A stretch of DNA of 64,000 nucleotides from a bacterium. GTDB taxonomy: Bacteria > Patescibacteriota > Minisyncoccia > Moranbacterales > UBA1568. The translations under genes were made by a program, and so were the position numbers. Each line of letters starts with the position of its first letter. Position 1 is the stretch's first letter. The notes under the pieces were generated by a model that was not told the DNA's origin, ran no database searches, and was given only the letters and a program-made list of their open reading frames with translations. The stretch spans positions 4,934-68,933 of the forward strand of contig JAKACP010000001.1 of assembly GCA_021821305.1 (NCBI GenBank), given 5' to 3'. This document shows positions 6,812-63,508 of the stretch, one piece after another.

Positions 6812-7252
6812 CTACGCTTCGCGGACCGTGCCACCCGCCTTCTTCACCGCCTCGAGCGCGGCATCGGAAAACCGTATACGGGAATCGAACGTGAGCGCCT
6901 TGGAAAGCGTCCCGCTCGCCACGACCTTGAATCCTCCGGTCATACGCTTCGGGGAAAACAACTTCTTCTTGAGCATGGTCGCGCGGCTCACCTCATCGCC
7001 AGCCTTGAAATTCCGGTCGAGAAACGCGAGCGTGACCGCCACGCGCTTCGCCCGGGGCGACTTGAATCCTTTCAATTTTTTCATCCGCTCGACGAGCGAC
7101 GAGCGTCCACCCTCGAACAAGGGATCGACGGACGAACCCGAGCGGGACTTCTGTCCTTTGGTGCCGCGGCCGGACGTGGTGCCGCGCCGACCGCCGCGGG
7201 CTATCCGCTTGCGGCTCTTTTTCTTCTCGACGGAGAGGGTATGGATCTGCAT
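6812..7252 (-). CDS. rplO: 50S ribosomal protein L15.
   Basis: Gly/Arg/Lys-rich N-terminus typical of L15 (RGGRRGTTSGRGTKGQKSRSG). Sits directly after rpsE. Confidence 0.9.
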   Translation of the reverse strand: MQIHTLSVEKKKSRKRIARGGRRGTTSGRGTKGQKSRSGSSVDPLFEGGRSSLVERMKKLKGFKSPRAKRVAVTLAFLDRNFKAGDEVSRATMLKKKLFSPKRMTGGFKVVASGTLSKALTFDSRIRFSDAALEAVKKAGGTVREA

Positions 7253-7264
7253 AGTGGTGGACGT

Positions 7265-7795
7265 TTATTGCTTCAATGCCTCTTTGGCGGGAGCGGCTTC
7301 CTTCTTCTCGGGTTCCGCCTCGGGCGTCGCGACGTTCCTCAGGTCTTCGAGCGCGAGCATGGTCGCGCGCGCGAGGTTGAGCGAGTTCGACGATCCGAGC
7401 GACTTCGAAACGACATCCTTGACGCCGAGGAGATCCATGACGGCACGAACCGCACCGCCCGCGATCAGCCCGCGGCCTTCCTTTCCCGGCTTCAGCATGA
7501 CTTTGGCGCTCCCGTACTTGGCCCGCACGTCGTGCGCGATCGTCCCGTTCACGAGGGCGACGGTGATGAAATTCTTCTTCGCGTCATTGAACGCCTTCTG
7601 GATCGCGTCGGAGACATCGCTTCCCTTGGCGATTCCCACGCCGACCTTGCCCTTCCGGTTGCCGATGACGATCGTCGCGCGGAATCGGAAACGGCGGCCG
7701 CCCTTGACCACGCGGGTAACGCGCGCCAAATCGAGGAGTTTCTGATCGTACTCCGGTTTCTCCCTTCGGCCCATTCTTTTCATCTGCTTTGCCAT
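7265..7795 (-). CDS. rpsE: 30S ribosomal protein S5.
   Basis: S5 dsRBD and C-terminal domain motifs (VTRVVKGGRRFRFRA, GIAKG). Confidence 0.9.
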   Translation of the reverse strand: MAKQMKRMGRREKPEYDQKLLDLARVTRVVKGGRRFRFRATIVIGNRKGKVGVGIAKGSDVSDAIQKAFNDAKKNFITVALVNGTIAHDVRAKYGSAKVMLKPGKEGRGLIAGGAVRAVMDLLGVKDVVSKSLGSSNSLNLARATMLALEDLRNVATPEAEPEKKEAAPAKEALKQ

Positions 7796-7823
7796 AGCGT
7801 TTTTCCGATGACTTTAGGAAATA

Positions 7824-8177
7824 TTAGAACACGAGTCCCGACTCCCGAGCTCCGTCCGCGACCGCCTTCACCTTTCCATGATAGCGGTATCCGGCCCGAT
7901 CGAACACGACCGTCTTGATACCGGCGGCCATGCACTTCTCCCCGACCAGCTTGCCGAGCGCGAGTGCGCCTTCGACGGTATTCTTCGTCTTCTTCATCTC
8001 GCGGAGATCGGCGGAGACGAGGGTCACGCCCTTGGTATCGTCGATGGCCTGGACGGAAATGTTCCGGAGACTGCGGAATACCGCCAGTCTCGGCCGTTCG
8101 GCCGTCCCGGAGATTTTCGCCCGTACCCTGCGCGCGCGTGCGAGTCGATCCTGTTTTCGTGCTGTTTGCTTCAACAT
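7824..8177 (-). CDS. rplR: 50S ribosomal protein L18.
   Basis: [18 protein letters not shown], typical of L18. Confidence 0.9.
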
Positions 8178-8194
8178 AGGACTGAAAATATTCT

Positions 8195-8731
8195 TTACGC
8201 GGAGGCTTTCTTCCCTTCTTTCCGCCGCACGATCTCACCGACATAGCGGAATCCTTTGCCCTTGTACGGTTCGACCGGCTTCAACCGACGGACTTCGGCG
8301 GCGAACTGGCCGACTTTCTGCTTGTCGATACCGGAGATGGTGAGCACGTTGCCCTCGACCTTCGCCTCGATGCCATCGACGATTTCCACCTCGACCGGAT
8401 GCGAGAACCCGAGCGCGAGGTTGAGCTTCTTCCCCTGGACGGCCATGCGGAACCCGACACCGTTCAGTTCGAGCTGCTTCTGGAATCCCTTGGCCACGCC
8501 CTCGATCATGTTGTCGATCATCCTCACGGTCGTGCCCCAGATCGCGCGCGCCTTCTTCGATTCACCGACTTTCGCGACCGTGAACACGCCGTCCGCAAAC
8601 GCCACGGAGACGGCCGTATGGTGCGCGAAGGACAGCGCTCCCTTGGATCCCTTGATGGAGATCACGTTCGCCTTGATCGAGGCCTCGATGCCCGACGGGA
8701 CGACTACCGGTTTTTTTCCGATCCTACTCAT
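8195..8731 (-). CDS. rplF: 50S ribosomal protein L6.
   Basis: [19 protein letters not shown], the two-domain L6. Confidence 0.9.
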
Positions 8732-8740
8732 AAGTTTCGA

Positions 8741-9145
8741 TTACCAGACTTCACAGATGTATTCCCCGCCCAACCCCTGCCGATAGGCGTCCTCGCCGCT
8801 CATCACGCCCTTCGAGGTCGAGATGATGGCCGCGCCGTATCCGTTCTTGACCTTCCTGATCTCCCCCTTCTTCGCATACACGCGGCAGCCTTCCTTGCTG
8901 ATCCGACGGATCTCGCGGATGATCGGCTCGCGCTTGAGCGGAGAGACTTCGGAGTACTTGAGCGCGATGACGATGGACTCGTGAGCCCCGTCGGCCTGTT
9001 TCGACACGCCTCCGATGAATCCGCGCGCTTCAAGCACGCCCGCGATGGCGAGTTTGAGTTTGGACGCCGGGATCGAGACGGTCTTGTGGCCGGCCCGCTG
9101 GGCATTCCGGATTCTGGTCAGCATGTCTGCGATTGGATCAAGCAT
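8741..9145 (-). CDS. rpsH: 30S ribosomal protein S8.
   Basis: MLDPIADMLTRIRNA, the S8 signature. Confidence 0.9.
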   Translation of the reverse strand: MLDPIADMLTRIRNAQRAGHKTVSIPASKLKLAIAGVLEARGFIGGVSKQADGAHESIVIALKYSEVSPLKREPIIREIRRISKEGCRVYAKKGEIRKVKNGYGAAIISTSKGVMSGEDAYRQGLGGEYICEVW

Positions 9146-9177
9146 ACGAATGTGTTCTTACCTTCAAAAAGATGTTC

Positions 9178-9363
9178 TTACCACGAGGCCTTCCGCACTC
9201 CGGGGATCTCGCCTTTGGAGGCAAGCTCGCGGAAGCAGATGCGACAGAGATCATACCGGCGGAGATACCCGTGTTTCCGACCGCACTTCCAACACCGATT
9301 CACGACACGGGTGGAAAATTTCGGGTGTTTCTCTGCTCTCGCTTGTACTGAAGTCTTCGCCAT
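9178..9363 (-). CDS. rpsZ: 30S ribosomal protein S14, type Z (zinc-binding).
   Basis: 61 aa with [23 protein letters not shown], a four-Cys arrangement. Confidence 0.85.
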
Positions 9364-9393
9364 AAGAAATTCTTTCGTGTGAAATAAGTCGGG

Positions 9394-9957
9394 TTATTCT
9401 TCGACCCGGAACGGGAAGCCGAGCCGTCGGAACAGGGCCACGCCCTGCTCGCCGTTCTCAGCCGTCGTCGTCACGGTCACCTGCATGCTGAACACCGTCT
9501 GAACTTTTTCCGGGATGATTTCTGGGAATATCATGTGCTCCTTGAGCCCCACGTTGCAGTTGCCGCTCTTGTCGACGGAAGTCACCGGGATACCCTGGAA
9601 ATCGCGTACGCGCGGAAGCGTCGCATAGAAGAACCGATCGAGGAACTCCCACATGCGCTTGCCACGGAGCGTCACCTTGACGCCGACATCGAGCCCTTCG
9701 CGGATCTTGAATCCGGCGATGGCCTTCCTCGCCTTGGTGAGGACCGGCTTCTGCCCGGTGATGGCCTCGAGCGACTGCACGATCTCGTCGACGCGCTGCT
9801 GCTCCTTGAGGAACTTACCCAGGCCGACATTGACCGTCACCTTCGCGATGCGGGGAAGCGCCAGGATATTCTTCCGCCCGAGATCTTTCTTGAGCTCCGG
9901 AAGGATTTCCTGATATTTCGTTTTCATGAGTGCCTGTTTCATAGTTCGATTCTCCAA
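9394..9957 (-). CDS. rplE: 50S ribosomal protein L5.
   Basis: L5 family motifs (NVGLGKFLKE...GIPVTSVDKSGNCNVGLKEHMIFPEI). Confidence 0.9.
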   Translation of the reverse strand: MENRTMKQALMKTKYQEILPELKKDLGRKNILALPRIAKVTVNVGLGKFLKEQQRVDEIVQSLEAITGQKPVLTKARKAIAGFKIREGLDVGVKVTLRGKRMWEFLDRFFYATLPRVRDFQGIPVTSVDKSGNCNVGLKEHMIFPEIIPEKVQTVFSMQVTVTTTAENGEQGVALFRRLGFPFRVEE

Positions 9958-9965
9958 GAATTCAG

Positions 9966-10274
9966 CTACTGTATCGCCTTCCCCGACTTCCGGCTCACCC
10001 GAACCTTCTCACCGCCCTCGATCGAATATCCGATGCGGGTCGGCTTGCCCGTGTGCGGGCAGACGAGCATCGCGTTCGAAGCGTGTATCGGGAACGGGAG
10101 CTCGATACGCTCCCCCTTCGCTCCGTCACGACGCGCCTTGCGGTGCTTCTTCATGACATTCACGCCCTCGACGACGATCCGCTCCTCCTTGAGAAGCAGC
10201 CGGACGATCTTACCGCGCTTTCCGCGGTCCTTTCCGGTGATCACCTCGATTTCGTCTCCTTTCTTGAATTTCAT
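9966..10274 (-). CDS. rplX: 50S ribosomal protein L24.
   Basis: KOW motif MKFKKGDEIEVITGKDRGKRGKIV. The internal Met was chosen as start; the longer ORF would overlap rplN. Confidence 0.85.
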   Translation of the reverse strand: MKFKKGDEIEVITGKDRGKRGKIVRLLLKEERIVVEGVNVMKKHRKARRDGAKGERIELPFPIHASNAMLVCPHTGKPTRIGYSIEGGEKVRVSRKSGKAIQ

Positions 10275-10287
10275 AGGATTCTCCCGT

Positions 10288-10659
10288 TTACAAAACTTCC
10301 TGAGCGAGCGAAACGATCTTGGCGAACCCTTTCTCGCGAAGCTCGCGGGCGACGGGGCCGAAGATACGCGTCCCTTTCGGATCGACATTGTTCGCGTCGA
10401 CGATGACCGCGGCGTTCTCATCGAACCGGATATAGGAATTGTCCTTGCGGCGATGGGTCTTGGACTGCCGAACGATGACCGCCTTGACCTTGTCGCCTTT
10501 CTTCACCATTCCGCGCGGTTCCGCCGATTTCACGGATGCGACGACGATATCGCCCAGACCGGCATATCGGCGACGGGTTCCCCCGAGCACCTTGAAACAC
10601 TCGATCACTTTCGCGCCGGAGTTATCCGCTACCTTCAATCTGGTTTCCGCTTGAATCAT
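10288..10659 (-). CDS. rplN: 50S ribosomal protein L14.
   Basis: [17 protein letters not shown], the L14 signature. Confidence 0.9.
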
Positions 10660-52518: not shown

Positions 52519-56088
<3,570 letters not shown>

Positions 56089-56118: not shown

Positions 56119-59100
56119 TTAGAGATCCCCGAAATTCTTTTCGGGCTCCGGTTCCGCCTCTTCCCCGTCGGAAGATTCGGTCTTCGCCCCCTTGAGCTCG
56201 ACGTTGAGGCACAGGCCCTTCAACTCGTTGACGAGCACGTGGAACGATGCCGGGATATTCGGGCTCTTGATCGGTTCGCCCTTGATGATGGACTCGTATG
56301 CTTTCGACCGTCCGAGCACGTCGTCCGATTTGATGGTGAGCATTTCCTGGAGCGTATACGCGGCGCCGTATCCTTCGAGCGCCCACACTTCCATTTCCCC
56401 GAAGCGCTGTCCTCCGAACTGCGCCTTGCCGCCGAGCGGCTGCTGGGTGATGAGCGAGTAGGGACCGATGGATCGCATGTGCAGCTTGTCCTCGACGAGG
56501 TGGTTGAGCTTCATGATATACATGACGCCGACCGTGGACTCGTTGTCGAACGCCTGTCCGCTCTTGCCGTCGATGAGACGGATCTTTCCGTTCTCGGGAA
56601 GGCCGGCCGCCCGGAGTTCCGTCTTGATGGTCGTTTCGGAGATGCCATCAAGCGCGGGGCTCGCTACCGTATAGCCGAGATTCCTCGCCGCCCATCCGAT
56701 GTGCGTCTCGAGTATCTGTCCGATGTTCATGCGGGATGCGACACCGAGCGGGTTGAGGATGATGTCGACCGGGGTACCGTCCGGGAGGTACGGCATGTCT
56801 TCCGCCGGCGCGATGTGCGAGATGACACCCTTGTTTCCGTGCCGTCCGGCGAGCTTGTCACCGACGGAGAGCTTGCGGATGCGCGCCACGGATACCTGGA
56901 TCTGTTCGAAGACACCCATCGGGAGCTTGTCCCCCTTGTTGCGGGAGAAGATCTTCACGTCGACGACCTTGCCGTGCTCCCCGTGCGGGAGATAGAGCGA
57001 GGAGTCCTTCACGTCGCGGGCCTTCTCGCCAAAGATGACGCGCAGGAGGCGTTCTTCCGCGGTGAGGTCGCCCTCTCCCTTCGGCGTGATCTTGCCGACG
57101 AGGATATCGCCGGACGAGACCTCGGCGCCGATGCGGACGATGCCGCCCTCGTCGAGGTTCTTCAGCCGATCCTCGCCGATGTTCGGGATGTCCCGGGTGA
57201 CCACCTCCGGCCCGAGCTTGGTGTCACGGACGTCGATGGAGAAATCCTCGATATGGATGGAACTATAGCGGTCCGCGTGGATGACTCGTTCCGAGACGAT
57301 GATCGCGTCCTCGTAGTTGAATCCCTCCCACGGGACGAACGCGACGAGCATGTTCTGGCCGAGCGCGAGTTCGCCGTGGTCCGTGGACGCACCGTCGGCG
57401 AGCACGTCGCCTTTCTTCACGGCCTGACCCTTGGTCACGCGGGGGACCTGGTTCATGCTCGTGAACGAGTTCGATTTGGCGAAGGTGAGCAGTTTGTATT
57501 CGCGGTCGAAATGTTCCTTCTTCGATCCGACGGGCGTCTTCTCCCGGACGACGACGTGTCCACCGTCGACGGAGATCACTTCGCCGTCGCGGACGGCGAC
57601 CGCGACCTGTCCGGAGTCCTTGGCGGCCTTGTCCTCGATGCCGGTGCCGACGATCGGCGCCTGCGGGACGACGCAGGACACGGCCTGCCGCTGCATGTTC
57701 GAGCCCATGAGCGCGCGGTTGGCGTCGTCATGCTCGAGGAACGGGATGAGCGACGTCGCGACCGAGATGCACTGCTTGGCGGAGACGTCGACATAGTCGA
57801 GTTCCGTGGCTTCGACCATTTCCGGATGCCCCTTCACGCGCGCCTCGACGAGCGCTTCGGTGATGTTGCGATGTTCGTCGAACGAGATGCCGGCATGGGC
57901 GATCGACTTGCGGTCCTCGACGATGGCGTTGATGTATTCGATATCGAGCGTCACGAACGGCTTGACGGAAACCGTCTTCCCCTTCCGCTCCTTCGCGATC
58001 TTCTCGGCGAGCTTCTCGTCGGAAATCTTCTCTCCGGACTTCGCTATGCCGGAAACATTCTCGCTCAGGATGCGGTTCATGAGCGCGTCCTTGTCCGCCG
58101 GGACTTCCTTGCTCACCTTGAGGTACGGCGTCTCGAGGAATCCGTATTCGTTCACGCGCGCATAGGTCGCGAGGTGTCCCACGAGTCCGATGTTCGGACC
58201 TTCCGGCGTCTGCACGGGGCAGATGCGACCGTAGTGGCTATGATGGACATCGCGAACCTCGAAGCCGGCGCGCTCCCGCGTGAGTCCTCCGGGACCCATG
58301 GCGGAGAGGCGGCGCTTGTGCTCGAGTTCCGCGAGCGGGTTCACCTGGTCCATGAACTGCGACAGCTGGGAGCTCGAGAAGAATTCCTTCACGGCGGCCG
58401 CGACGGGGCGCGGGTTCACGAGCTGGCCCGGGACGACGGTCGCGAGGTCGCAGGTGCTCATGCGGTCCTTGATGTTGCGGACCATGCGGTAGATGCCGAC
58501 GCGGAGCTTGTTCTGGATGAGCTCGCCGACCGCGCGGACGCGGCGGTTGCCGAGGTGGTCGATATCATCGGGGCGTCCGTCCGGATCGTTGGAAAGCCGA
58601 ATGACTTCCCGGATGATGAGGAGGAGGTCCTCCGTGTTGAGGATGCGGTTCGCCTCCGTGTTCTCGCGCTCGACGGAGAGGCGCTGGTTGAGGCGGTATC
58701 GTCCGACCGCGCCGAAATCGTAGCGTTCGAAGTTGAAGAACATGGAATCGATCATCTGCTTGGCATTCTCCTCGGTCGCGAGGTCGCCCGGGCGGATGCG
58801 CTTGTAGACTTCGCGGTAGGCCTCGCCGCGGTTCGGGATGGAGTCCTTGGCGAACGTCTCGTCGATATAGCGCTTCTCGGCCGTGTCGATATCGGCGAAC
58901 TCCTTGCGGATCGCCTTCTCGTCGTATCCGAACGCCTTGAGCAGGACCGTGATCGGGAGCTTGCGCTTGCGGTCGATCTTCACCGAGATGACGCCGTCGA
59001 GATCGGTCTCGATCTCGAGCCATGCGCCGCGGTTCGGGATGATCTTCGCGCCGAAGAGTTTCTTCCCCTTGTCGAACGTCATGGTGAAGAACACTCCGGG

Positions 59101-59550
59101 GCTGCGGATGAGCTGGGAGACCACGACGCGTTCCACGCCGTTTATGATGAAGGCGCCGCGCTCGGTCATGAGCGGGAATTCGCCGAGATAGATCTCCTGT
59201 TCCTTCACCTCGCCGGTCTTCTTCAGTACCAAGGTCGCCTTGGCGCGGAGCGGGGCCTCGTAGGAGATGTTCTTGGCCTTGGCCGTCTCCGGATCGTATT
59301 TCGGTTCGTCGAGATAGTAGTCGGAAAGCGAGAGTTCGAGGTCCTTCTCGGTGAAGTCGGTGATCGGGTTCACCTCGTCGAAGAGCTCCTTGAGTCCTTT
59401 CTCCCAGAACCATTCATAGGAGTCTGACTGTATCTCGATGAGGTTCGGCAGGGAGACCAACAGCTGGTCCTGGAAGAACCTCCGCTTCGAAAGCGAAGAG
59501 TGCGCGCTGAAATGCTCTTTGACACGGAGTGCCGGCTTCGCTTGGGACAT
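56119..59550 (-). CDS. rpoB: DNA-directed RNA polymerase subunit beta.
   Basis: Conserved beta-subunit regions (e.g. GRHGNKGVIS); 1143 aa. Directly upstream of rpoC. Confidence 0.95.
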   Translation of the reverse strand: MSQAKPALRVKEHFSAHSSLSKRRFFQDQLLVSLPNLIEIQSDSYEWFWEKGLKELFDEVNPITDFTEKDLELSLSDYYLDEPKYDPETAKAKNISYEAPLRAKATLVLKKTGEVKEQEIYLGEFPLMTERGAFIINGVERVVVSQLIRSPGVFFTMTFDKGKKLFGAKIIPNRGAWLEIETDLDGVISVKIDRKRKLPITVLLKAFGYDEKAIRKEFADIDTAEKRYIDETFAKDSIPNRGEAYREVYKRIRPGDLATEENAKQMIDSMFFNFERYDFGAVGRYRLNQRLSVERENTEANRILNTEDLLLIIREVIRLSNDPDGRPDDIDHLGNRRVRAVGELIQNKLRVGIYRMVRNIKDRMSTCDLATVVPGQLVNPRPVAAAVKEFFSSSQLSQFMDQVNPLAELEHKRRLSAMGPGGLTRERAGFEVRDVHHSHYGRICPVQTPEGPNIGLVGHLATYARVNEYGFLETPYLKVSKEVPADKDALMNRILSENVSGIAKSGEKISDEKLAEKIAKERKGKTVSVKPFVTLDIEYINAIVEDRKSIAHAGISFDEHRNITEALVEARVKGHPEMVEATELDYVDVSAKQCISVATSLIPFLEHDDANRALMGSNMQRQAVSCVVPQAPIVGTGIEDKAAKDSGQVAVAVRDGEVISVDGGHVVVREKTPVGSKKEHFDREYKLLTFAKSNSFTSMNQVPRVTKGQAVKKGDVLADGASTDHGELALGQNMLVAFVPWEGFNYEDAIIVSERVIHADRYSSIHIEDFSIDVRDTKLGPEVVTRDIPNIGEDRLKNLDEGGIVRIGAEVSSGDILVGKITPKGEGDLTAEERLLRVIFGEKARDVKDSSLYLPHGEHGKVVDVKIFSRNKGDKLPMGVFEQIQVSVARIRKLSVGDKLAGRHGNKGVISHIAPAEDMPYLPDGTPVDIILNPLGVASRMNIGQILETHIGWAARNLGYTVASPALDGISETTIKTELRAAGLPENGKIRLIDGKSGQAFDNESTVGVMYIMKLNHLVEDKLHMRSIGPYSLITQQPLGGKAQFGGQRFGEMEVWALEGYGAAYTLQEMLTIKSDDVLGRSKAYESIIKGEPIKSPNIPASFHVLVNELKGLCLNVELKGAKTESSDGEEAEPEPEKNFGDL

Positions 59551-59846
59551 ACGAAAATGGCCATCTCGTTCTTCTTGCTTCTTTCATCACCCGAAAAGAA
59601 ACAAGCAGGCTCGATGGTTAACAGCTTACTTATGAAATTGTGCTTCGCGTGCGGACGCTAAACATCTTCTTTGAAAAAGAAGGAACAAAAACGGCAACCC
59701 GCGTCATTCGAAAAGCGCGGTTCTTTTGTTTTGCCGAGCCGTCGCTCAGGCTACCCGGGGAAAGTCCAAGATCTTGATGTCGAGTAGGATGATGGTACCA
59801 AGAGGCCATTTTCCTGTCAAGACCGAAGATATGGCCCGGCGATCCG

Positions 59847-60134
59847 TCACTCACGAAAATGCTCCTTTCTTGCCGAAAAACGGTATGTTTCGGCCACGGT
59901 TTGCGCGATTTTCACGGATGTGAAATTGTCGGAGACTTCCGTCTCGACGGTGAAATCCGACACATCGGTCGGCCGAAGACCCTTTTCCTTGAGGATGGCA
60001 TCGATCGATTCGAAGAGCTGCCGCCCCATGTCGCGGCCTTCGGACCATTCTTTGGCGATCACCTCCGTACCGTCCTCAAGCAGGGCGAGGCGGGATTTCT
60101 CTTTTTCGACTTTCAGCGCGAACGTTCTCTCCAT
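59847..60134 (-). CDS. Hypothetical small protein, weakly TsaB/YeaZ-N-terminal-like but lacking the GPGSFTG motif.
   Basis: The pattern ...LALLEDGTEVIAKEW...DVSDFTVETEVSDNFTSVKIAQTVAETY loosely parallels TsaB. Low confidence. Confidence 0.25.
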   Translation of the reverse strand: MERTFALKVEKEKSRLALLEDGTEVIAKEWSEGRDMGRQLFESIDAILKEKGLRPTDVSDFTVETEVSDNFTSVKIAQTVAETYRFSARKEHFRE

Positions 60135-60139
60135 AATTC

Positions 60140-60892
60140 CTATTTCAGTTTCTTCCAATCGAAATTCCACGGATCGGTCTTGCGCCCCGGCGCGATATCG
60201 TCATGCCCGACGACATATTTCACCCCGTGCTTCTTCCCGAGGTACGCGACGAGCGCGTTCACGCTGTCGTACTGGGCGCCCGTATATCCGGCATCCTCGT
60301 CACCCAGGATCTCGATGCCGATCGAAAATCCGTTCACGTTCGTCCGTCCGTCGGGCATCTTGGAGTTCCCTGCATGGTACGCGATGTCCTCGTCCTCGAC
60401 CAGGCGATAGATCGTCCCCTTCCGATCGATCATGTAGTGCGGCGCGACATCGTATGATTTCCAGATATCGATCACCTTGTCGACCGAATACCGGTCCCCG
60501 CCTTGGTTGTTGTACGACGAGTGGAGCACGGCCGTGTCGATCGATCTCCCGGAGCTTTCGGCATATCCGAACGAGACAAGACGATTCCGTATGGAAGGAG
60601 CATCGTCAGACGCGGCCGGTTTTTTTGGCTCGTCGGCTTCGGCGGTCTTCGTCGGCTGTGAATTCTCAGCCGTCGGCTCTTTCACCTGCTCCATGGCTTC
60701 GGCAGTCTGTTCCTCGACCGTTTTCACGACTTCCTCCGCCGCCGCGGGCGCCGGTATCTCCGCGGAGAGATTTTCGACGGCCGGAGCGACAGCATTCTCC
60801 ACGACCAAACTCGCCTCGGGAGCGCTGAGGATGAAATACCCCGCCCCGAAGGCCAGGGCAAGCATCGTGATTAGGATTCCGATCATTCTCAT
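60140..60892 (-). CDS. Membrane-anchored N-acetylmuramoyl-L-alanine amidase (Amidase_2 / PGRP fold).
   Basis: N-terminal TM, Ala/Glu/Pro-rich linker, then an Amidase_2 core (AYHAGNS..., GIEILGD, HDDIAPGRKTDP). Confidence 0.7.
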   Translation of the reverse strand: MRMIGILITMLALAFGAGYFILSAPEASLVVENAVAPAVENLSAEIPAPAAAEEVVKTVEEQTAEAMEQVKEPTAENSQPTKTAEADEPKKPAASDDAPSIRNRLVSFGYAESSGRSIDTAVLHSSYNNQGGDRYSVDKVIDIWKSYDVAPHYMIDRKGTIYRLVEDEDIAYHAGNSKMPDGRTNVNGFSIGIEILGDEDAGYTGAQYDSVNALVAYLGKKHGVKYVVGHDDIAPGRKTDPWNFDWKKLK

Positions 60893-60927
60893 AGTGTCTT
60901 CATTGTACGCCGGAACGGAAGAACGTA

Positions 60928-60950
60928 AAGGCCCGCAGTGTGCGGGCCTT
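60928..60950 (-). terminator. Hairpin terminator between the DUF883-like gene and the amidase gene.
   Basis: aaggcccgcagtgtgcgggcctt. The U-run is weak. Confidence 0.4.
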
Positions 60951-61012
60951 ACTCTCTTGAAATGCACTCGTTGTTCGGGATCCCTCGACTACGCTCGGGA
61001 TGACCCTTCGGG

Positions 61013-61264
61013 TCACTTCTTCCCCTTCTTCTTGCCACCGGAGAGGAGGAGAGCCGCCGCCGCGCCGAGCGCCGCGCCGACACCCGCCGCGATCGCGGCC
61101 GCCTTTTCGGGGTTCTTCTTCATGAAATCCTCGGCCTTCTTCGCGACTCCCTCGACCGACTTCTTCATCTTGAGCGCTTCTTTCTCGACGAGCTTCTTGC
61201 TCTTGTCGAGCTCCTTCTCGACCTTCGCCTTCACATCCTCCATGTTGTCCTTGAGCTGAGCCAT
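61013..61264 (-). CDS. DUF883 (ElaB/YqjD-like) membrane-anchored coiled-coil protein.
   Basis: Helical N-terminus, then NPEKAAAIAAGVGAALGAAAALLLSGGKKK, which parallels the YqjD C-terminal anchor NPW..GIGAAIG..LG.LLSRR. Confidence 0.55.
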   Translation of the reverse strand: MAQLKDNMEDVKAKVEKELDKSKKLVEKEALKMKKSVEGVAKKAEDFMKKNPEKAAAIAAGVGAALGAAAALLLSGGKKKGKK

Positions 61265-61313
61265 ACGCTTTTTATAATTGTTACTTGGTTTATCAGTATA
61301 ATATAAAGTACGT

Positions 61314-61640
61314 TCACCGCTCCCGTTTCCATAAAGCGGAGAGTATGACCGCTGTCGAGAACACGAGCGTCCCGACGAGTACCTGACCGACTCCCGGCAC
61401 TCCATAGAGGAAATCGAGCAGTCTCGCGAAGCCGGAGAGCAGGAACCACATCCCGAATATCGCGAGGACGAGGACGAGCCCGCGCCGGGCGATGCGACTC
61501 AGTATGTCTTCCACGCCGACTGCGACACCGTCGAAGAGCTTGCCCACGAGCGATTGCACGCTCCCGAACACCGTCTCGAAAATCCACGAGAAGTCCAGGC
61601 CCTTGCCATCCTTCTTTTTCGACGTGTTCACATCCGACAT
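61314..61640 (-). CDS. Holin-X / DUF1469 (YqjE-like) small two-TM membrane protein.
   Basis: About 108 aa with an amphipathic N-terminus, two TM helices and a basic C-terminus (LWKRER). Paired with a DUF883 gene as in yqjD-yqjE. Confidence 0.45.
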   Translation of the reverse strand: MSDVNTSKKKDGKGLDFSWIFETVFGSVQSLVGKLFDGVAVGVEDILSRIARRGLVLVLAIFGMWFLLSGFARLLDFLYGVPGVGQVLVGTLVFSTAVILSALWKRER

Positions 61641-61904
61641 GATTCTTCTTTCAAAATTCATTACCCGACTCACCTATTATAGCACAAATAACCGACGTGG
61701 TCAAAGCGATTATCACGCGAAACGCATCTTCGCCGCAGGTATGTCGACACATGAGCGGGCCAGCCGATCAAAAAACTCCCCGCAAGGGGGAGTTTTCTTT
61801 TTGGAGCGGGTAAGGGGAATCCCCGCCCGCCTGACCGTAACAATTTTGAGCGAGATACGGGAATCCCTGCCTGCCGGCAGGCAGGGAACCCGTCATTGCT
61901 GATG

Positions 61905-61975
61905 AGCGGGATACGAGAATCGAACTCGCGTCCTTAGCTTGGGAAGCTAATGTACTGCCATTGTACTAATCCCGC
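61905..61975 (-). tRNA. tRNA-Gly, anticodon CCC.
   Basis: Hand-folded. Acceptor GCGGGAT/ATCCCGC, U8, D-stem GTAC/GTAC, anticodon stem TTAGC/GCTAA with loop TTCCCAA, T-arm GCGAG-TTCGATT-CTCGT, discriminator U. 71 nt. Confidence 0.75.
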
Positions 61976-62083
61976 TTCGACAGGGAACATTGTAGCATAC
62001 GCGCCGTGCCTGTCTACCAGGAACGTCTTTTCAAAGTATCTCCTTCATGATAGACTCCGCTGGTAAAAAACCTGGAAAAAATC

Positions 62084-63508
62084 ATGAAATTGACACTCAC
62101 CCGCGGCCGGATCATCGCGCTTTCGGCACTCCTTCTGGTCGCGATAGGAGGCATTATCCTGTTCTTCTATGCCAAGGAACACAAGGAGGAATTCGCGGCC
62201 GGCGGGTTCGCCCTGTTCGAAAGGGTCTCGAAACTGCTCCCCCTCGAACCGGACACGAAGAAGGAGATAGAGGTCATCGGATCGCTCGTCTCGAAGTTCA
62301 CCCAGACCGACGGGGAAACCCATACGTTCTTCCTCATGCTCCAGAACAACTACGAGCTCCGTCCGGGCGGAGGATTTCTCGGCCAGTACGCGATCCTGAA
62401 GGTGAAGGACGGGAAGATCGTCTCCTTCGTCTTCGAGGATGCCAACCTCCTCGACCAGCGGATCAAGGACGCCGGCATCAAGGTGACGCCTCCGTGGCCG
62501 CTCACGCGCTACGCCCAGATCAAGCGCTGGATGCTCCGGGATTCCAACTTCTCCCCCGATTTTCCCACGAACGCGGCCAAGGCCGAGTATTTCTACCGGC
62601 TCGGAGGCGGACGCGAACGGCTTGACGGCGTCATCGCCATCAACGCCGACGTGTTGAATCACGTCATCGGCGTCGTCGGCCCGATCACGATTCCCGGTTT
62701 CGGCACGTACACCGCGGAGAACGCCGCGATCGATCTCGAGGAAGACGTCGAGAAGGCCTATCTCGGGGACGACATCCCGGCCGAGCTCAAGCAGAACCGG
62801 AAAAACGTCATGAAACGGCTCGCGGCGGAAATCATCGGGCGCATCGACGGACTCGATGACGTACAGAAGCTCGCGAACCTCGGCCTCGAGGAGCTCCGCG
62901 ACAAGAATGTCCAGCTCTTCTTCAAGGATGCCGAACTCCAGAAAGAGGTCGAGAGCGTCCACTGGGACGGGGCGGTATCGAAAGACTGGAACAAGGACTA
63001 CCTCATGGTCGTCGATGCCAACCTCGGAGCCCTCAAGAGCGACTACTACGTCCGGCGATCGCTCGATTACACCGTCGACTTCACCGGAGAGAAACCCAAG
63101 GCGACCGTGCTTTACACCTACAACCATACGGCGACCCACGGAGACTGGCGCACGAGCGACTACCATACCTATACCCGCGTCCTCGCACCTTCCGGCTCCT
63201 CATATATCGACCAAAGCCGCGTAAAGACCGGTGGCGTCTCATCGCAGGAATCAGCGGAGTGGAACAAGATGGTCTTCGGCTACAAGGTCGATGCCCTTAT
63301 CGGGTCCACGCTTCCGACCTCGATCAGCTACGAGCTTCCCCCGACGATCACGGCCGACGGCTACGAGCTCCTCATCCAGAAGCAATCCGGCACCGGAACC
63401 ATCCCCGTCAAAGTGACCATAAAGACCCCGGGAAAGGAGTACGTGCAGACCGCCGAACTCAAGAAAGACCTCCACCTCTCGATACGGACCTCCGAGGAGG
63501 GGAAATAA
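62084..63508 (+). CDS. DUF4012-domain membrane-anchored protein.
   Basis: N-terminal TM plus the characteristic ELRPGGGFLGQY motif. Confidence 0.65.
   Translation: MKLTLTRGRIIALSALLLVAIGGIILFFYAKEHKEEFAAGGFALFERVSKLLPLEPDTKKEIEVIGSLVSKFTQTDGETHTFFLMLQNNYELRPGGGFLGQYAILKVKDGKIVSFVFEDANLLDQRIKDAGIKVTPPWPLTRYAQIKRWMLRDSNFSPDFPTNAAKAEYFYRLGGGRERLDGVIAINADVLNHVIGVVGPITIPGFGTYTAENAAIDLEEDVEKAYLGDDIPAELKQNRKNVMKRLAAEIIGRIDGLDDVQKLANLGLEELRDKNVQLFFKDAELQKEVESVHWDGAVSKDWNKDYLMVVDANLGALKSDYYVRRSLDYTVDFTGEKPKATVLYTYNHTATHGDWRTSDYHTYTRVLAPSGSSYIDQSRVKTGGVSSQESAEWNKMVFGYKVDALIGSTLPTSISYELPPTITADGYELLIQKQSGTGTIPVKVTIKTPGKEYVQTAELKKDLHLSIRTSEEGK

Follow-up and report, generated by a model that had tools for sequence, protein, structure and literature searches.

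YqjD, ElaB and YgaM of Escherichia coli are under RpoS control and sit in the membrane by a C-terminal tail anchor. They bind the 50S subunit close to the exit of the tunnel and stop translation, an activity that requires the N-terminus, dimerisation of the transmembrane (TM) segment via glycine motifs, and a TM-adjacent proline (bioRxiv 10.1101/2024.08.16.608256). Genes of the yqjE and yqjK type are syntenic with DUF883 genes family-wide, and the DUF883 survey in the same work covers mainly Pseudomonadota and a few other phyla, its main text having 0 occurrences of 'Patescibacteria' (bioRxiv 10.1101/2024.08.16.608256). Elsewhere, the Pseudomonas homologues PA3040-3042 are tied to envelope stress (PMC11302039), and in Actinoplanes, Holin-X genes are paired with DUF3618 genes in the sigma-H stress regulon (PMC11205660). 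Our own literature search found no paper joining DUF883 and Patescibacteria. Here we describe a pair of small genes, P1 and P2, in a 64,000-nucleotide stretch (hereafter the window) of the chromosome of a Candidatus Moranbacteria/Moraniibacteriota organism (Patescibacteria; contig JAKACP010000001.1), where the gene of an Amidase_2 enzyme follows the pair. P1 and P2 are probably a strongly diverged form, in Patescibacteria, of the YqjE/YqjD inner-membrane pair (PF07332 plus DUF883), and the amidase is a separate unit.

An earlier note on this DNA had described a two-TM open reading frame (ORF), a coiled-coil ORF, a hairpin and a TM-anchored amidase, and the ORFs, hydropathy, AlphaFold2 (AF2) models and folding all agree with that description. 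The note had also preferred a yqjDE-type module over a lysis cassette. This preference held at the level of profiles and families and in the pairing of the two genes across relatives, but Pfam cut-offs, gene order and profile similarity to YqjE did not bear it out.

P2, P1 and their pairing across relatives

P2 is a lysine-rich helical protein with 21 Lys and Arg residues in 83 aa. Hydropathy peaks at residues 55-75, marking one C-terminal TM segment with conserved glycines, and the AF2 model has a helix at 2-50, a break at residue 51 and a second helix at 52-75 (pLDDT 69). The C-terminal part reads KKNPEK-AAAIAAGVGAALGAAAALLL-SGGKKKGKK, so that N51-P52 precede AAAIAAGVGAALGAAAALLL, and it combines a conserved KKNPEKA kink, a Gly/Ala zipper TM segment and a poly-Lys tail. 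When 29 sequences of the family are aligned, N51, P52 and G67 are invariant and G61 is nearly so (>=90%). A helix-breaking proline directly before the TM segment, as found here, is a trait of the DUF883 family (bioRxiv 10.1101/2024.08.16.608256).

On the DUF883_C model (PF19029), P2 scores 18.8 bits (E 0.0013; gathering cut-off 27 bits) and the consensus of its family 22.4 bits, and 28/29 homologues match the same model, sub-threshold, with a best E of 2.3e-5. The NCBIfam ElaB model is matched at E 2.5e-4. When the P2 profile is compared with E. coli YqjD, the hhalign probability is 95.7% (E 9e-9) over the kink and TM region, with only residues 32-76 aligned. YqjD itself, the positive control, reaches 57 bits on DUF883_C and, on the model for the N-terminal domain of DUF883 (PF05957), 49.5 bits. 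In public databases, homologues of P2 go by the names 'DUF883 family protein' or 'ElaB/YqjD/DUF883 family membrane-anchored ribosome-binding protein', and three of them carry a precomputed PF19029 call. The DUF883 label proposed for P2 in the earlier note is not supported at curated thresholds, though the homologues and the likeness to YqjD point the same way. Judged by sequence, we have reasonable confidence that P2 is a divergent DUF883_C-type (YqjD/ElaB-like) protein.

By hydropathy and AF2, P1 starts with a basic N-terminus, continues as a long amphipathic helix on the cytoplasmic side and ends in a two-TM hairpin. The model is a helical hairpin with helices at 18-79 and 84-107 (pLDDT 80.7), and the TM helices are joined by a YGVPGVG loop whose conserved form is YG.PG.G. 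Starting from an alternative in-frame ATG at 61661, the protein would have 115 aa. This architecture matches that of PF07332 (Phage_holin_3_6 / DUF1469 / YqjE), namely an N-terminal cytoplasmic helix and then two TM helices in about 110-135 aa.

For P1 alone, scans of Pfam, NCBIfam and PHROG gave no match at E<=1. An exhaustive HMMER profile search of 1.84 billion proteins yielded 68 representatives of its family at 50% identity, about 84-144 aa long and most of them 100-120; the closest homologues of both P1 and P2 bear Moranbacteria names. The Pfam scan was repeated with the 68 representatives plus the window protein (n=69). PF07332 was the commonest match, with 38/69 sequences at E<=1 vs 22 for the runner-up family; the best E was 3.9e-5, and all were below the Pfam cut-off of 28.4 bits. 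The matches are collinear, protein residues ~19-105 lying on profile positions 3-90 of 116, which takes in the N-terminal helix and both TMs. The P1 consensus scores 18.8 bits and the best individually shown member 21.2 bits, while E. coli YqjE, the positive control, scores 75.8 bits. Thus the DUF1469/holin-X label given to P1 in the earlier note gains sub-threshold backing from its family but none from a Pfam match of its own. P1 appears YqjE-like in architecture, and its homology to YqjE/PF07332 is only suggestive.

Pairing was examined at 71 loci, which were obtained by a pattern search with the P2 alignment, keeping one genome per species. They are mostly from Moraniibacteriota, with some other Patescibacteria, four archaeal bins and one Massilia, and the neighbours of P2 were identified by HMM searches of six-frame ORFs. 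In 66/71 loci, P2 is preceded on its own strand by a P1-family gene, directly adjacent in 65, and the spacer between them has a median of 44 nt (49 nt in the window). No upstream P1 was seen at the other five, which comprise the Massilia locus, a locus at a contig edge and three of the archaeal bins. The pairing of P1 with P2 is thus nearly obligate.

Beyond the pair, neighbours are variable. At loci without the amidase they include 7TM-transglutaminase/ATP-grasp, MarR+HlyD, UvrB, Fe-ADH, DUF2238, M23 and TPR genes. Clustering of neighbouring ORFs for a third conserved, yqjK-like partner turned up nothing but shadow ORFs of known genes. A peptidoglycan hydrolase, Peptidase_M23/Csd3-like, is located directly upstream of P1-P2 in one distant relative (L072:4180-5466); outside the amidase-linked clade, no further cell-wall enzyme was seen next to P1-P2.

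Several observations weigh against assigning the pair to YqjE/YqjD. The window P2 stays below the curated cut-offs of both Pfam and NCBIfam. The DUF883 N-terminal domain (PF05957), which is the ribosome-binding part in YqjD, has no match in P2 at E<=1 and is absent from the 25 most-matched families among the 29 P2 homologues. P2 has no Trp after the proline (NPEK, not NPW) and no C-terminal Arg-Arg/Arg-Lys, ending instead in GGKKKGKK, and a five-lysine C-terminal tail is awkward, being hard to translocate if P2 is a true tail anchor. The window P1 likewise misses the PF07332 cut-off, with no match at E<=1. When the 69-sequence P1 profile was compared with E. coli YqjE or with a 112-sequence enterobacterial YqjE alignment, the hhalign probability was <1%, a weak test because the enterobacterial template is shallow (homologues all >82% identical; Neff 1.5), and hmmsearch between P1 and enterobacterial YqjE in both directions gave E no better than 0.003. 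The sub-threshold link between P1 and PF07332 could partly mirror shared two-TM composition. Gene order in the window is reversed (E-like then D-like) with respect to E. coli yqjD-yqjE(-yqjK), and a yqjK-like gene is missing.

Much of this also fits a rival reading, in which P1-P2 would be small membrane proteins peculiar to a lineage of ultrasmall cells, convergent on YqjE/YqjD in architecture and serving, e.g., envelope/membrane stabilisation or surface-structure scaffolding, with no ribosome connection. All database similarities are sub-threshold, no relationship between P1 and enterobacterial YqjE was detected, YqjD has neither the poly-Lys tail nor this order of genes, and the N-terminal two thirds of P2 match only generic coiled-coils (Apolipoprotein, Mu Gam); moreover, the homologous Pseudomonas operon is tied to envelope stress, not growth control (PMC11302039). 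What convergence explains poorly is that the similarities fall where they do. The NP-kink and glycine-zipper segment matches YqjD with the high hhalign probability given above, PF07332 is the single dominant match of the P1 family with collinear, full-length alignments, and these two independent weak links are on two genes that are also adjacent in the model system, making chance unlikely. We therefore regard convergence as unlikely, though far from negligible, and favour a divergent YqjE/YqjD pair.

Transcription signals and the neighbouring amidase

On the minus strand, the genes are ordered tRNA-Gly(CCC), P1, P2, amidase, a 95-aa gene (p95), rpoB and rpoC (Table 1).

Table 1 Features of the P1-P2 region, in window coordinates
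Feature	Position	Strand	Remarks
DUF4012 gene	62084-63508		divergent
tRNA-Gly(CCC)	61904-61975	-	
GC-rich 10-bp hairpin	61772-61796	.	in the gap between tRNA-Gly(CCC) and the P1 promoter-like site; A and T runs on either side
Promoter-like site 5' of P1	61676..61704	-	TTGACC, 17-nt spacer, TG-TATAAT; 11/12 matches
P1	61314-61640	-	108 aa, membrane protein
P2	61013-61264	-	83 aa, predicted C-tail-anchored helical protein
Second short stem	61000-61016		overlaps P2 stop codon
Terminator-type hairpin 3' of P2	60919..60958	-	AAGGCCCGCA-CAC-UGCGGGCCUU, then UUACGUUCUU (U-rich tail); z = -2.78; 0/200 shuffles fold equally well
Weak promoter-like site 5' of amidase	60902..60929	-	TTTACG, 16-nt spacer, TACAAT; 9/12 matches; overlaps hairpin 3' arm
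Amidase_2 enzyme	60140-60892	-	250 aa, counted from the ATG 3' of the hairpin
p95	59847-60134	-	95 aa; begins 5 nt past amidase stop codon
rpoB	56119-59550	-	
rpoC	52519-56088	-	

The promoter-like site of P1 sits 5' of its start codon and 3' of the hairpin behind tRNA-Gly, and promoter-like sites number 6 in the region vs 1.1 expected. From its sequence, the post-tRNA hairpin looks like a bidirectional intrinsic terminator, and it is the upstream boundary of the P1-P2 unit. At the other end, a hairpin of <= -15 kcal/mol is found within ~80 nt 3' of P2 in 72% of 69 loci, vs 16% of control windows. These hairpins are usually trailed by a U-tract, and they are also seen where the amidase adjoins. 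No ORF separates P2 from the amidase in the window, and an Rfam scan of 59500-62300 gave the tRNA as its sole match. Because a promoter-like site precedes P1 and a conserved hairpin follows P2 even beside the amidase, the best reading of P1-P2 is a bicistronic operon that stands by itself, with a promoter-like site and a terminator hairpin of its own.

The amidase has a hydrophobic N-terminal segment (residues 1-25), an 80-residue linker rich in Ala, Glu, Pro and Val, and an Amidase_2 domain (PF01510) that scores 95 bits against a cut-off of 26 (E 5.8e-27). Its closest solved relatives are AmpDh2 (E 5.6e-14), AmpD and AmiD. The motifs AVLH(124), GIE(194) and GHDDIAPGRKTDP are all there, the last numbered as GH(230)DDIAPGRK(238)TD(240)P, and they hold H124, E194, H230, K238 and D240, which we equate with the Zn-binding and catalytic residues of AmpD. 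By these features, the enzyme is a predicted membrane-anchored or exported N-acetylmuramoyl-L-alanine amidase of the AmpD/AmpDh2/AmiD type.

The position of the amidase differs from relative to relative. It is directly downstream of P2 in 21/71 loci, and in 11/71 it is downstream behind 0.5-2 kb of inserted genes, three such inserts having been scanned with no Pfam match. In 5/71 it precedes the pair on the same strand (amidase-p95-P1-P2-rpoB), in 2/71 it is 3-4 kb upstream on the opposite strand, and in 32/71 it was not found in the flanks examined. The three inserts without a Pfam match are L005:5481-6524, L007:5393-5860 and L008:5564-5950. Since these unrelated genes, of 347, 155 and 128 aa, were inserted in some relatives, the P2-amidase junction is shown to be a hot spot for gene gain.

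A p95 homologue trails the amidase in 30/38 amidase-holding loci, and the two move as a block. p95 has no Pfam match; its only similarity, a weak one, is to TsaB/YeaZ in the N-terminal half (NCBIfam E 1.8e-5). Because P1-P2 are constant while the amidase varies in position and is nearly always with p95, the region is made of two independent two-gene blocks, P1-P2 and amidase-p95, which lie upstream of rpoB in one lineage.

The earlier note had proposed checking the co-occurrence of all three genes. Co-occurrence was confirmed for P1 with P2 but extended to an adjacent amidase in fewer than a third of the loci. The note had also named two outcomes that would speak against its assignments, missing Pfam support and genes that do not co-occur in relatives, and each of them was found in part.

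A small two-TM protein <0.5 kb from an Amidase_2 enzyme invites reading the locus as a holin-endolysin cassette for lysis or autolysis, in which P1 would be a holin or pinholin that releases or activates the amidase, in a prophage remnant or in a domesticated cell-separation/autolysis unit. The amidase domain does resemble phage endolysin/amidase PHROGs, with E down to 7.5e-16. P1 has no PHROG match, its model has no viral fold match (BFVD best E 0.74), tblastn against 50,697 phage genomes found nothing above chance level for P1 (best E 0.5) and no hit for P2, and no relatives of P1 or P2 were found on 2.9 million viral contigs. No phage genes lie around, as the earlier note had stated correctly; the flanks are tRNA-Gly, DUF4012, rpoB and rpoC.

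Linkage is likewise two-sided. The amidase is adjacent or near downstream in 32/71 relatives, with 5 more permuted, and one distant relative has the M23 peptidase upstream of the pair. However, other relatives have unrelated inserts, the amidase-p95 block upstream or no amidase in the examined flanks (32/71), and it is P2, not the amidase, that is the constant partner of P1. In the window, the terminator hairpin and a separate promoter-like site part P2 from the amidase. Finally, because the amidase bears its own N-terminal export anchor, it needs no holin.

A lysis cassette is very improbable on this evidence. The holin-endolysin candidate was rejected for the lack of phage context and relatives, the terminator between the genes, the variable position of the amidase and its own export anchor. 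The earlier note's further suggestion of a three-gene regulated autolysis or cell-separation unit is likewise not supported, given the hairpin, the amidase's own promoter-like site and export anchor, and an amidase that is inserted away, permuted or absent in most relatives. The adjacency is best explained by descent, one sub-lineage of Moraniibacteriota having inherited this gene order upstream of rpoB, with no functional lysis coupling.

Some further features of the region concern rpoB. In the classical bacterial arrangement, rplJ/rplL precede rpoB; here rpoB has no rplJ/rplL before it. Its leader is a non-coding segment of ~300 nt (59551-59846) with a promoter-like site, TTGACA, 17-nt spacer, TACCAT, at 59820-59792 (-). 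The arrangement amidase-p95-rpoB or P1-P2-rpoB is repeated across Moraniibacteriota. A 1062-aa ORF (56239-59427, +) runs antisense to rpoB, and the region has many other long shadow ORFs; such antisense and shadow ORFs are typical of GC-rich coding sequence and are no evidence of genes.

Possible function and archaeal pairs

If P1-P2 are a divergent YqjE/YqjD pair, P2 would be anchored by its C-terminal tail, with the long basic helix projecting into the cytoplasm. The conserved Asn-Pro kink would link this helix to the Gly/Ala-zipper TM helix, and the zipper helix probably drives dimerisation, as has been shown for E. coli YqjD. P1 is predicted to be an N-in/C-in two-TM hairpin with conserved glycines, and it may be the membrane partner of P2, either offering it a site for docking or assembly or regulating it. 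The basic helix of P2 would face a cytoplasmic polyanionic target, most plausibly ribosomes. The amidase would act apart from this, as a Sec-targeted peptidoglycan amidase in its own amidase-p95 unit.

P2 dimerisation, a polyanionic target and partnership with P1 are proposed because of the kink and zipper anchor, the long charged helix and the constant two-TM neighbour. What the sequences show is the architecture and the pairing; physical interaction between P1 and P2, ribosome binding and stress regulation are what we infer along these lines. By analogy with YqjD and ElaB of E. coli, the pair would most likely tether or silence ribosomes, or some other polyanionic target, at the membrane under stress or in dormancy. 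Nearly as likely is a role in envelope stress alone, like the one proposed for Pseudomonas PA3040-3042.

Pairs of a DUF883-like tail-anchored gene and a small two-TM gene also exist in archaeal genomes, mostly of DPANN type. In a Nanoarchaeota single amplified genome (SAG), the pair (L067:5527-6111) is beside PolD DP2 at 6874-10311, and its two-TM partner matches the P1 HMM weakly (15.6 bits; hhalign 51%). In a Nanobdellota genome (L069:5518-6201), the two-TM partner matches the P1 HMM at 7e-14. Both have the two-TM gene upstream, the same as the window. Two more pairs (L066:5893-6548 and L076:~1930-2632) are from bins labelled Methanosarcinales; they have the two-TM gene downstream, in the E. 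coli order, and it has no detectable relation to P1. The archaeal pairs suggest cross-domain spread of the module among ultrasmall organisms.

A bolder interpretation, which we find doubtful, is that P1-P2 form a minimal membrane-tethered ribosome-silencing module for dormancy, specific to ultrasmall episymbiotic prokaryotes and including Patescibacteria and the related DPANN pairs. The poly-lysine tail-anchored helical protein would park the few ribosomes of such a cell at the membrane under control of its YqjE-like two-TM partner. If true, hibernation of the YqjD type would be extended well beyond Proteobacteria and across domains.

For the divergent YqjE/YqjD pair that we favour, the consequences are more modest. 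A small, tightly paired two-gene membrane module is defined that current Pfam models miss, and it appears to be the Patescibacteria counterpart of yqjE/yqjD. A tempting false positive is removed as well, since a 'holin beside amidase' in a CPR genome could pass for a cryptic lysis cassette. If P2 tethers or silences ribosomes, it would offer a handle on dormancy in organisms that have very few ribosomes and no cultured representatives, and the known range of tail-anchored hibernation factors would become wider.

Comparison with known systems

The amidase shares with AmpD, AmpDh2 and AmiD the Amidase_2 domain, at the score given above, and the conserved motifs AVLH, GIE and GHDDIAPGRKTDP. It differs from them in having an N-terminal TM or signal anchor and a linker, not a lipoprotein signal or a cytoplasmic location, and on the AmpD equivalog model it scores 98 bits, below the cut-off of 143.

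Phage cassettes of a holin and an Amidase_2 enzyme are similar in the short distance between a two-TM protein and the amidase and in the match of the amidase domain to endolysin PHROGs. In contrast to those cassettes, the present locus lacks both a phage context and relatives of P1 in phages, it has a terminator between the genes, the amidase itself is membrane-targeted, and the linkage is not conserved.

The actinobacterial pairs of Holin-X (PF07332) and DUF3618 are alike in architecture, joining a PF07332-type two-TM protein to a small coiled-coil partner with a single TM segment. Their partner is, however, DUF3618 and not DUF883-like.

Closest is the E. coli pair yqjD-yqjE, where a small helical protein with a proline and then a glycine-rich C-terminal TM segment is encoded beside a protein of ~110-130 aa with an N-terminal helix and two TMs. 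Apart from the reversed order and the missing yqjK-like gene, YqjD has 101 aa vs 83 in P2, the PF05957 domain is only in YqjD, the residue after the proline is Trp vs Glu, and the tail is RR vs KKKGKK. On the respective models, YqjD scores 57 bits vs 18.8 for P2, and YqjE 75.8 bits vs no match for P1. Set beside these systems, the finding is an annotation refinement, a divergent form of a known module and no categorically new system.

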